From assembly GCA_017434825.1 (NCBI GenBank), contig JAFSGC010000020.1:42096-106095 (forward strand): a DNA stretch of 64,000 nucleotides, written 5' to 3'. The DNA comes from Bacilli bacterium (GTDB taxonomy: Bacteria > Bacillota_I > Bacilli_A > RF39 > UBA660). Of the stretch, positions 57,802 through 59,910 are shown in pieces (position 1 is the stretch's first letter; every line of letters starts with the position of its first letter). Position numbers and translations under genes: made by a program. The notes beneath the pieces are model-generated. The model saw only the letters and a program-made list of their open reading frames with translations, made no database searches and was not told where the DNA came from.

Positions 57802-58110
57802 CTATTTAATTAATCTTTCTCTTTCCTTCATTTTACTTTTGTCAATTGCATTAATTGAAGTTCTTATATCAGATTCTAAAACATCAAAATTAGTGTCAAC
57901 CTTTTTAGCTGCAGCCATTATATTTTGCAACTCTTTATTATATGAATTTATAGTATTATCTAAACGATTCAAATAGCCTCGATAAGCAAACAAAAGAGGA
58001 ATATCAAAATTTGTATATGAAACCGCTGAATTTAAATATCCTTGTAACTCAGAAATATCTAAATAACAAGTTTTATATAGTCCATCTTCGGGATATTTTA
58101 TTGCAGTCAT
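57802..58110 (-). CDS. small helical protein S6 of the T7SS-linked operon (no WXG)
   Basis: 102 aa. ATG overlaps the stop of S5 (TAATG). Confidence 0.55.
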   Translation of the reverse strand: MTAIKYPEDGLYKTCYLDISELQGYLNSAVSYTNFDIPLLFAYRGYLNRLDNTINSYNKELQNIMAAAKKVDTNFDVLESDIRTSINAIDKSKMKERERLIK

Positions 58111-58415
58111 TATATTCCCTTTCCTAATTCATCTTCACGATTTAATTTAGCTTGCCTTTCAAAATCATCCGCTATCGTACTTATTTGCTTTGCATAACTT
58201 CTAAGCTGACTTCCCACATTCATATAATCACTTTTTTCAAAAGATACAATATTAAAATATTTTTCAGCTTCGCCACCAACCCATTCTTTGGTAACGGTAG
58301 GTACTTCAGAAAATCTTTTAAAAAGCTTAGTTATTTCCATTTCATATTCAGTTGCTAATTTAACAATATTACTTGCAGATTCTTTCATTTTTTGACTATT
58401 AATATTACTTACCAT
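58110..58415 (-). CDS. WXG100-family protein S5
   Basis: 101 aa, central WVGGEAEKYF (W-x-G) between two predicted helices. Confidence 0.7.
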   Translation of the reverse strand: MVSNINSQKMKESASNIVKLATEYEMEITKLFKRFSEVPTVTKEWVGGEAEKYFNIVSFEKSDYMNVGSQLRSYAKQISTIADDFERQAKLNREDELGKGI

Positions 58416-58424
58416 ACTTTCCCC

Positions 58425-58733
58425 CTAAAATATATTGGCGGCAGCTTCAAGCAATTGACGTGTCTTACGTAAACGATTAATACATTCATCTATATTTGGA
58501 ATTATAGTATATTTTAAATAATTAGAAGTTTTATGAACATCATCTTTGAGATCAGTAATTCTTTTTGAAATATTTGTTTTTTCATTATCTACTAAATATG
58601 CACCGTTAATCTTTTTTTCAAATTCTTCGGATTTAGAATCATATTTTTCTAGATAAACTATGATACTCTTAACTCTATTTCTTAAAGATTGATATCTTCG
58701 AATATCATAATCACATTCCTCAATAGGTGTCAT
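58425..58733 (-). CDS. small helical protein S4 (no WXG)
   Basis: 102 aa, starting 9 nt upstream of the S5 start. Confidence 0.55.
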   Translation of the reverse strand: MTPIEECDYDIRRYQSLRNRVKSIIVYLEKYDSKSEEFEKKINGAYLVDNEKTNISKRITDLKDDVHKTSNYLKYTIIPNIDECINRLRKTRQLLEAAANIF

Positions 58734-58766
58734 AAAACCCCTCCTTTATTTAAAATTTACAAAGAA

Positions 58767-59240
58767 TTAATCAATTCTAATTGATTGTGCTTGTGCTCTA
58801 ACATCTGCAGCATCTGCTGTAACATCTTGAGAAATATCTGAAGCAGCAGCTTTGTAATTATTGTATGCATTTGTAGCATCTTCAATAGATACCTTCATTG
58901 TAGATACATAAGCTTGAAGAATTTGTTTGATTGCTCTAATAAATTCTCTAGCAGCAGTTTGGATTTCACCTTTATAAGCGTTACTGATATTTCCTTCTTC
59001 ATCAAATGTAGCAATTTGTTCTTCAATTGCGTCACAATAAGTTTTTAATGCAGCTTTAATATCTTCTACTCCAGATTCACTAATACCAGCAAATCCACCA
59101 CTCCAAAGATTTGAAAAGCCAGTAGTTACTGAACCAACAACATTTTCTAATTGTGTTTTAGCACCTGAAAATAGATTTTCAAACCAATTTTCTACATCGT
59201 TACCAATATTATCAAAAAATGAACTTAAACTTATTCCCAT
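58767..59240 (-). CDS. 157-aa protein S3: Gly/aromatic-rich N-terminus plus a WXG100-like helical hairpin with YKG in place of WXG
   Basis: N-terminus GISLSSFFDNIGNDVENWFENLFSGA...GFSNLWSGGFAGI. C-half is helix-NAYKGE-helix. Confidence 0.55.
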   Translation of the reverse strand: MGISLSSFFDNIGNDVENWFENLFSGAKTQLENVVGSVTTGFSNLWSGGFAGISESGVEDIKAALKTYCDAIEEQIATFDEEGNISNAYKGEIQTAAREFIRAIKQILQAYVSTMKVSIEDATNAYNNYKAAASDISQDVTADAADVRAQAQSIRID

Positions 59241-59242
59241 TT

Positions 59243-59560
59243 TTAATTACCTCTCTTTGCAATTAGTGATTTATCCATTTCAGACATCTTATTAACAATT
59301 TCTGTTAATTCACCTTTTAGAATTCCAAAAGCTTCATCTAAAGCTGCACAAATTCTATCTTTGTCAGCCTCCATGTTCTTTTTGAATTGATCAGCTGAAG
59401 CACCAACCCATCCAGCATCTACAGTACTTCTTAAATCACTCATTCTTGTTCTCATTGTAGATTTTGTATCTTCGATACATTTTGTGTTTAGGTTATTTAG
59501 TGCATTTTGCACTTCATTAGCATTATAACCTATAGTGGCATTTTCAATATTTAAAGCCAT
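59243..59560 (-). CDS. WXG100-family protein S2
   Basis: 105 aa, central GWVGASADQF (W-x-G). Confidence 0.75.
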   Translation of the reverse strand: MALNIENATIGYNANEVQNALNNLNTKCIEDTKSTMRTRMSDLRSTVDAGWVGASADQFKKNMEADKDRICAALDEAFGILKGELTEIVNKMSEMDKSLIAKRGN

Positions 59561-59574
59561 AAACGAACACCTCC

Positions 59575-59910
59575 TTATATTTTCACTTGTTTCGCTTTTA
59601 ACAACATATCTTCAGTAGCATTAACAAACATGGTTGATAAATATTTAGCATTTTCCTGAAGTTTTTGGATAAGCGCAATAAAGTCATCTGAATAGGAATT
59701 TATATTATTTTTCACCACTAAATAATTAGCTCGAAAAGTTCTATACGAATTCATTAATTGATCATAGGAGTTGCATACCATGTTTCCTTTTAATAATTCA
59801 AATTCTTCATCAACCTTATCAAAAATTCCCATGATTCTTTCGCTATAATCCATTACTTCTAAACAAAGTTCTTTAAGCTCTTCTTCATTAATTCCAGTTA
59901 CAACGTCCAA
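59575..59910 (-). CDS. small helical protein S1 (no WXG)
   Basis: 111 aa. TTG start 8 nt after GGAG. First gene after the 59994-60021 terminator. Confidence 0.5.
   Translation of the reverse strand: MDVVTGINEEELKELCLEVMDYSERIMGIFDKVDEEFELLKGNMVCNSYDQLMNSYRTFRANYLVVKNNINSYSDDFIALIQKLQENAKYLSTMFVNATEDMLLKAKQVKI

Follow-up and report, generated by a model that had tools for sequence, protein, structure and literature searches.

What does a run of six small genes do behind the motor gene of a type VII secretion system (T7SS) when only two of the six products carry a WXG motif? The question is raised by a 64,000-nt stretch of contig JAFSGC010000020.1 (GCA_017434825.1), hereafter the window, in whose own numbering all window positions are given; it belongs to a genome of the Bacilli (labelled G000 in-house, the contig being C20) whose assembly spans 1.07 Mb at 29% G+C and is estimated to be 93% complete. 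The six genes, designated S1 to S6 in transcription order, with S6 at the essC-distal end, follow the gene for an EssC-type ATPase of the T7SSb class. Debate continues over the T7SSb channel, namely over the proteins that build it together with EssC, and over the function of the EsxA-type proteins, which are universally secreted. We found no paper on T7SSs in these uncultured lineages, nor any source that gives a name to one of the six proteins. On the evidence assembled here we lean, if only slightly, toward the view that the six are the conserved, co-secreted core substrates of a pared-down T7SSb-derived system, probably arranged as two three-protein bundles, and not chaperones of a single toxin.

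All six genes lie on the minus strand. S1 (59575..59910), which opens with a TTG start, encodes 111 aa, S2 (59243..59560) 105 aa, S3 (58767..59240) 157 aa, S4 (58425..58733) 102 aa, S5 (58110..58415) 101 aa, and S6 (57802..58110) 102 aa. From S1 to S6 the intergenic gaps are 14, 2, 33, 9, and -1 nt; at the last of these, S6 is translationally coupled to S5 by an overlap of the form TAATG. A GGAG-type Shine-Dalgarno-like sequence, read directly in the DNA, precedes each of the six starts. An earlier interpretation made from the letters alone (the sequence-only reading) had given the same coordinates, lengths, gaps, and overlap, all of which match the open reading frames (ORFs), and the WXG motifs that it noticed, GWVGASADQF in S2 and EWVGGEAEKYF in S5, are indeed present, with no WXG in S1, S3, S4, or S6. 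Ratios of nonsynonymous to synonymous substitution (dN/dS) of 0.17-0.39, computed between two orthologous loci, establish that all six are real genes under purifying selection. None of S1-S6 has a transmembrane segment or a signal peptide, the maximum Kyte-Doolittle mean over 19 residues staying below 0.9.

By profile comparison, S2 and S5 are divergent but genuine WXG100 proteins. The GWVG motif of S2 occupies residues 50-53, with W51, G53, F59, and D96 conserved and the W and G invariant in 20 orthologues; EWVG of S5 occupies residues 44-47, with W45 and G47 invariant in 18 orthologues. S2 is assigned to the family because the profile built from its 20 orthologues matches the solved structure of Staphylococcus aureus EsxA (2vs0, E=2.8e-5), and S5 because its 18-orthologue profile matches Bacillus anthracis EsxB (E=1.6e-6); the latter profile also finds Geobacillus EsxA (E=1.2e-4). 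In every locus examined the S2 and S5 genes lie directly downstream of essC. Toward its C terminus S2 carries a hydrophobic-x-x-x-D-x-x-L motif that resembles the YxxxD/E and FxxxD export motifs, and T7 export is reported to depend in general on an acidic residue in a C-terminal helix (Klein et al., 10.1101/2023.07.21.550046). These and the following family calls draw on shallow alignments of 16-20 orthologues per S protein (A2-A7), and they were made by best-hit assignment, since the first iterated searches with hidden Markov models had lumped S1, S2, S3, and S5 as one family. Scanned as single sequences against Pfam and NCBIfam, S1-S6 returned sub-threshold WXG100 matches for S2 and S5 together with coiled-coil noise, and nothing else.

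S1 and the C-terminal two-thirds of S3 are likewise members of the WXG100 superfamily as judged from their profiles, though both lack W-x-G; the sequence-only reading had not recognized this kinship. S1 has a [YF]-x-[GC] turn in place of the motif and a conserved N..[ST]Y-x-x-D-[LFM] pattern in its second helix (17 orthologues, A2), and its profile weakly matches Thermomonospora curvata EsxA/B (4lws, E=2e-3) and EsxA (E ~0.06). In S3 an N-terminal Gly-rich segment of ~50 aa precedes an ESAT-6-clan hairpin whose turn reads [L/F/Y]-K-G in 16 of 19 orthologues. Profile-profile alignment with hhalign joined S1 to the C-terminal 100 residues of S3 at 96.7% (E=3e-10), S1 to S5 at 90%, and S2 to S3 at 72%. 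Members of both families reach the Pfam WXG100 model PF06013 below its cut-off, 4 of 17 for S1 (best E=4e-5) and 4 of 19 for S3. The AlphaFold2 model of S3 (predicted local distance difference test score, pLDDT, 67) shows a hairpin of helices 55-88 and 91-156 after a low-confidence N-terminal helix, and a Foldseek search with it placed B. anthracis EsxB chains in the top 13 positions (probability ~0.9, E ~0.5), followed by a TelA-LXG/Lap complex; the S3 profile searched against PDB sequences gave nothing meaningful. S3 members also match, always below threshold, the WXG100 family, the N-terminal half of LXG, EspC, and DUF6507. Two of them match LXG model PF04740, at best with 21 bits (E=3e-4) against a cut-off of 26.5 and over model positions 10-93 of 202, and one orthologue reaches 23.3 bits against the EspC family, whose cut-off is 23.5. 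No cargo domain follows the S3 hairpin, with which the chain ends, the extra ~50 aa being N-terminal. S1-like N termini on ~290-aa proteins of relatives were rejected as chance matches to the N terminus of a tyrosine recombinase.

The remaining two proteins, S4 and S6, are lineage-specific hairpin families. The helical S4 has no consistent Pfam, NCBIfam, or PDB match (orthologue alignment A5), and S4 and S6 are faintly alike, hhalign giving just 30%. Many S4 orthologues end in variable low-complexity tails of 40-70 residues, rich in Glu/Arg/Ala or in Ser (L033:983-1465, L041:965-1459, L027:10962-11408); the window copy is tailless. In S6 the I-P-S-D-F loop contains a Pro that is invariant, and the C-terminal tail, I/M-K-x-R-x-x-x-I/V, is basic and conserved (A7); the AlphaFold2 model of S6 (pLDDT 84) is an asymmetric hairpin, helix 11-32 being joined by a loop to helix 44-88, with a disordered tail. 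It returned no significant fold or sequence match, Foldseek offering generic hairpins at E>0.9 and Pfam, NCBIfam, and PDB none. Among 1.84 billion metagenome proteins the S6 family comprises at least 419 representative clusters (50% identity) at E<=1e-10, nearly all of them stand-alone proteins of ~100 aa. A 787-aa protein with eight S6-like stretches (P0115) was set aside as a repeat protein that has only an IPTDYAKE-type motif in common with the family.

To which machine do these proteins belong? The sequence-only reading had labelled the two genes upstream of them essC and esaB, and the first of these labels is secure. The essC gene (60280..64000, minus strand) runs past the window end with its N-terminal part, 1239 C-terminal codons of a 1525-aa protein lying inside; the full protein has the N-terminal extension and scores 926.8 bits with TIGR03928, above the NCBIfam equivalog cut-off of 778.4, which identifies it as an FtsK/SpoIIIE ATPase of the T7SSb (Firmicutes) type. 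The start of the second gene (60032..60280, minus strand) overlaps the essC stop in another TAATG (60277-60283). Its 82-aa product is tentatively taken to be YukD/EsaB-like from its size, its position, and one weak Pfam match: a single member of 15 in the family, the paralogue encoded on contig C4 of the same genome, matches PF08817 (E=0.0017), and the family profile found no PDB sequence, so that the name EsaB is weakly supported. The yukD-like gene directly follows essC in 14 of the 16 tabulated loci in which essC is linked to the six genes (hereafter the cassette).

The cassette is restricted to a single family of uncultured Bacilli from the gut, whose genomes measure ~1 Mb. An S3 profile searched against 201 genomes of the order, nearly all from this one family, matched 19 of them, representing 14 of 98 genera, and an S6 profile gave full-length matches in ~20 genomes. 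In a 400-genome sample of the class, S6 was detected in 4 of 49 genomes of this family and in none of 351 from 30 other families. In public collections, contigs related to this one bear the title 'uncultured Bacilli bacterium' or 'Mycoplasmatota bacterium' and stem from the gut of humans, rabbits, and chickens. All six gene families occur in most of the 24 retrieved loci (20 distinct) and in all 16 extended loci, and where six are present their order after essC and the small gene is nearly always S1-S2-S3-S4-S5-S6, across at least 14 genera. The exceptions are two species of one genus (L057 and L058), which have S4-S5-S6-S1-S2-S3, and a metagenomic locus (L027) with S2-S3-S1-S4-S5-S6; rearrangement thus mostly shifts the genes in two units of three. 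In keeping with this division, S5 and S6 are separated by a median of -1 nt, and by no more than 5 nt in 15 of 18 loci; the S3|S4 junction is never tightly coupled. Two metagenomic loci have genes of mobile-element type after the cassette, namely conjugation-type genes in one (a TraC-like gene and one for a 931-aa multi-pass protein; L027:12135-20468) and genes for an N6/N4 methylase, a helicase, and a serine recombinase in the other (L029:11533-18261), so the cassette may move horizontally.

A second, diverged cassette, which the sequence-only reading had not recorded, resides in the same genome. BLASTP with S1-S6 as queries against every ORF of G000 located it on contig C4 (69360-78247; locus L011:3360-12248), where S1' to S6' encode 125, 100, 161, 102, 94, and 102 aa in the same order as in the window. 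S1 is 37% and S3 31% identical to its counterpart, and S2 and S5 find theirs at E ~6e-5. The locus further contains essC2 (1547 aa), a yukD-like gene (91 aa), and a gene for a 575-aa HExxH lipoprotein, with S1'-S6' convergent to these. In a maximum-likelihood tree of 24 EssC proteins of the family, a branch with 100/99 support separates the 16 that are cassette-linked from the eight of other locus types, and the cassette-linked EssC proteins divide into sub-clades A, with the window copy, and B, with the C4 copy, each of which retains all six genes. The association is with this clade and not with EssC at large: EssC exceeds its cut-off in 104 of 201 family genomes, with up to three in some, and most EssC loci of the family, as sampled by the eight loci L071-L078, have no cassette and instead carry other sets of small genes, e.g. 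two to four tandem WXG100 genes. In two of the eight (L074, L076) the yukD-like gene lies on the other side of essC, and in L077 it is several genes away; an EssB-like gene was not noticed in any of them, no search aimed at EssB having been made there. Complete and in order across genera, also after the whole system was duplicated long ago, and tracking one EssC clade, the six genes behave as components intrinsic to the system rather than as cargo that can be exchanged or as adaptors specific to a toxin.

This constancy bears first on the idea that the six are stand-alone small effectors, directed at competitors or at the host and without a role in the machine. The crowded gut communities in which these bacteria live would give such effectors their use, and small WXG100-like effectors have been proposed in the T7SSb literature. 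However, the composition and order of the cassette are fixed, unlike those of polymorphic effector loci, the dN/dS values show no diversifying selection, and no toxin or immunity-like gene stands beside the cassette in the loci examined, in agreement with what had been noticed at the window copy. We regard free-standing effectors as very unlikely.

The same constancy, together with the features of S3, also bears on a possibility close to that raised at the outset by the sequence-only reading, namely a substrate or chaperone set whose cargo is encoded elsewhere. In its most specific form S1 and S2 would be Lap-like partners that target S3, a mini-LXG protein lacking a toxin domain, and S4-S6 would form a second adaptor set for LXG-like cargo at a distant locus. 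The hydrophobic-x-G turn of S3, its two sub-threshold LXG matches, and the TelA-LXG/Lap complex among the Foldseek results all speak for such an arrangement, as do the two small genes upstream of S3, which mimic the lap-lap-LXG gene order. Suitable cargo also exists, since a search beyond the window, where the earlier reading had suggested that LXG genes might be sought, located LXG-like proteins of 303 and 369 aa on contig C6. Yet a WXG100 partner is encoded within the C6 cluster itself, S3 ends without a cargo domain, and no LXG-toxin gene occurs in the window locus or in 16 related loci. The families by which Lap proteins are recognized, DUF3130/TIGR04197 and DUF3958, which had been put forward for comparison, gave no hit for the six proteins in Pfam and NCBIfam (E<=1) or for the orthologues of S1, S3, S4, and S6 (E<=0.01). 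Moreover, where an adaptor set would normally change along with its toxin, this one is fixed across at least 14 genera and in both paralogous systems of G000, and within a single EssC clade. The link to a T7SS and the helical hairpins foreseen at the outset stand, but a chaperone set for remote cargo we consider unlikely. The C6 cluster (C6:1-4000, L012) is of interest in its own right as a third T7-type substrate cluster of the genome, away from any essC. Besides a WXG100-like gene, which at 26.5 bits falls short of the cut-off of 27.3 and has a copy at C9:6452-6706, it includes a radical-SAM enzyme (PF04055, E=4e-13). This enzyme may modify a T7 substrate encoded by the cluster.

The membrane partners of EssC in T7SSb systems, EssB/YukC, EsaA/YueB, and EssA/YueC, for which the earlier reading had proposed to look beyond the window, could not be detected: in profile searches of this draft genome PF10140, TIGR03926, TIGR03929, and TIGR03927 had no match near their cut-offs, and EssB and EsaA (TIGR03926, TIGR03929) were also unmatched in the draft genomes, 95-96% complete, of five other cassette carriers. 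The same searches recovered the B. subtilis genome above the cut-offs as a control. The gap, which the sequence-only reading had not reported, invites the proposal that S1-S6 are not secreted at all but are cytoplasmic or envelope subunits, structural or regulatory, that replace EssB, EssA, and EsaA. That within this clade the cassette is as conserved as the essC-yukD pair agrees with this, and one S3 orthologue nearly attains the EspC cut-off; for EspC, filament formation in the envelope has been reported from mycobacteria. However, none of the six has a membrane segment, four of them belong to a superfamily whose characterized members are exported, and more obvious candidates for a replacement envelope component are at hand, so that we judge a purely structural or regulatory role quite unlikely.

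The candidates in question are two HExxH proteins, the sole recurrently conserved neighbours, one or the other of which accompanies 12 of the 16 tabulated cassette-linked loci. TM465, a membrane protein found with type A loci, has ~465 aa, a single membrane-spanning segment, and an invariant HExxH; in G000 it is encoded just past the window end (L001:8898-10445 = C20:106897-108444, plus strand), divergent to the locus and inverted relative to its orthologues. LP575, found with type B loci, is a lipoprotein of ~575 aa, also with an invariant HExxH, and its gene adjoins the C4 copy. The two are alike around the HExxH in profile-profile comparison (93%, E=3e-7), with no similarity seen by BLASTP. 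TM465 matches no Pfam family above cut-off, at most 2 of 7 members having weak zincin-like matches, and a scan of LP575 (the C4 copy) gave no hit.

Returning to the co-secreted core substrates that we favour, we do so because four of the six belong to a superfamily whose characterized members are exported as helical bundles and because the pre-secretion complexes known from T7 systems hold three or four such proteins (Klein et al., 10.1101/2023.07.21.550046; Yang et al., PMC10653861). One of these, formed by S. aureus EsxB, EsxC, and EsxD with a substrate, is a shaft-like bundle (Yang et al., PMC10653861). The six would assemble in the cytoplasm as helical bundles of elongated shape, the likeliest grouping being S1-S2-S3 and S4-S5-S6, with S5 and S6 as a tightly coupled pair. 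EssC would then export the bundles, recognizing them by the hydrophobic-xxx-D motif at the C terminus of S2 and by the basic C-terminal tail of S6. The proteins would thereby act not as adaptors but as co-secreted components that the machine itself needs, in the manner of EsxA in T7SSb or of EsxA/EsxB and PE/PPE in ESX systems.

Several results weigh against this picture. No T7 family could be linked to S4 or S6, which are placed in the system by their gene context. In the window copy, moreover, both S2 and S5 miss the curated Pfam and NCBIfam cut-offs: with PF06013 (cut-off 27.3 bits) S2 scores 20.7 (E=5e-4) and S5 14.4 (E=0.047), and with TIGR03930 (cut-off 44.85 bits) S2 scores 22.4 (E=1e-4) and S5 15.4. 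The outgroup that defines the cassette-linked EssC clade consists of eight proteins picked from the top-scoring hits and not at random. Finally, mirror-tree analysis discriminated no partners among the six, the partial correlations of pairwise distances, controlled for EssC, being weak and at most 0.41.

How does the locus compare with the T7SSs already described? The ESX systems (T7SSa) possess several conserved pairs of helical-hairpin substrates (EsxB/EsxA, PE/PPE), some of them without WXG, that are encoded in the locus and needed by the system. The likeness to the present locus is one of functional analogy only and extends to the hairpin proteins encoded in the locus and to a membrane-anchored, extracytoplasmic putative protease, MycP there and the HExxH protein here. 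MycP, however, is subtilisin-like and not related to the HExxH protein, the motor is of the EssC and not the EccC lineage, and EccB, EccD, and EccE have no counterpart.

The kinship with T7SSb, as represented by the S. aureus Ess and B. subtilis Yuk/Yue systems, includes the type of EssC with its N-terminal extension, a gene for a small, putatively ubiquitin-like protein, and helical proteins of ~100 aa, with or without WXG, encoded downstream of essC. The two nevertheless differ in several respects. The yukD-like gene lies 3' of essC here, whereas the canonical order is esaB-essB-essC; EssB, EsaA, and EssA are not detectable, and an HExxH membrane-anchored protein often stands in the place of these partners; and six fixed small genes, with no toxin, chaperone, or immunity gene adjacent, replace the combination of one core EsxA with variable partners. 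The LXG-Lap1/Lap2 (Lap3/Lap4) complexes of Streptococcus intermedius resemble the cassette in their three-gene helical groups, in the position of a hydrophobic-x-G protein (here S3) after two hairpin partners, and in the C-terminal acidic residue present in S2. They differ from it in that no S protein matches DUF3130 or DUF3958, S3 has no toxin domain, and the set is invariant and tied to essC and not to a polymorphic toxin locus.

A recent survey defined the subtypes T7SSc to T7SSj, of which T7SSg is the simplest, and identified a universal trio composed of the ATPase TsxC, the ubiquitin-like TsxB, and the WXG100 protein TsxA (Garrett, Higginson, Palmer 2024, PMC11217815). The present locus has the trio, its ubiquitin-like member being a tentative assignment, and with T7SSg and T7SSe it has in common the possession of two WXG100 genes (PMC11217815). 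Compared through the descriptions in that survey, it has none of the kinase TsxD, the PPM phosphatase TsxF, the FHA protein TsxJ, TsxI, the DUF5050 propeller TsgL, the EspG-like TsxG, or the AAA+ ATPase, and TsgC of T7SSg lacks the N-terminal extension that is present in EssC here. No published subtype from T7SSa to T7SSj has this composition (PMC11217815), the survey being based on RefSeq, which holds few such uncultured genomes. It is enticing to go one step further, to a proposal that we hold to be doubtful but worth stating: the cassette, essC, the yukD-like gene, and the HExxH membrane protein would together constitute an undescribed T7SS subtype that dispenses with EssA, EssB, and EsaA, in which all six small proteins are obligatory and form two heterotrimeric shafts serving both as a composite export signal and as an envelope-crossing part. 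If so, it would rank among the smallest natural type VII machines.

The lineage keeps an EssC motor, a small, putatively ubiquitin-like protein, and a fixed set of six hairpin proteins, with EssA, EssB, and EsaA either lost or never present. A compact system of ~9 kb and nine genes is well suited to reconstitution and structural work, and with S4 and S6 two unannotated families would be added to the T7SS repertoire. Such systems are carried by abundant uncultured Bacilli of the gut, often in two copies per 1-Mb genome.

The flanks of the cassette call for a few further remarks. The sequence-only reading had bounded the six genes with two strong terminators, and this holds for the upstream one, a terminator-like hairpin (59992..60031, minus strand) in the interval between the yukD-like gene and S1 with a folding free energy (dG) of -17.6 kcal/mol and z -5.98, followed by U8. 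The element after S6 is a weak AT-only hairpin with a U-run (57777..57803, minus strand; dG -7.8 kcal/mol, z -2.56). The yukD/S1 hairpin was considered as a conserved feature of the system and rejected; only some orthologous loci have one, and elsewhere the small genes abut yukD. The next gene downstream encodes a phosphoketolase, as had been read from the sequence (XFP_N, E=1e-173). Convergent with it is an ORF of 366 codons (54240-55340, plus strand) with an HEYGH motif and no Pfam family, and a strong bidirectional terminator at 55313-55350 (dG -19.6) is common to these two genes.

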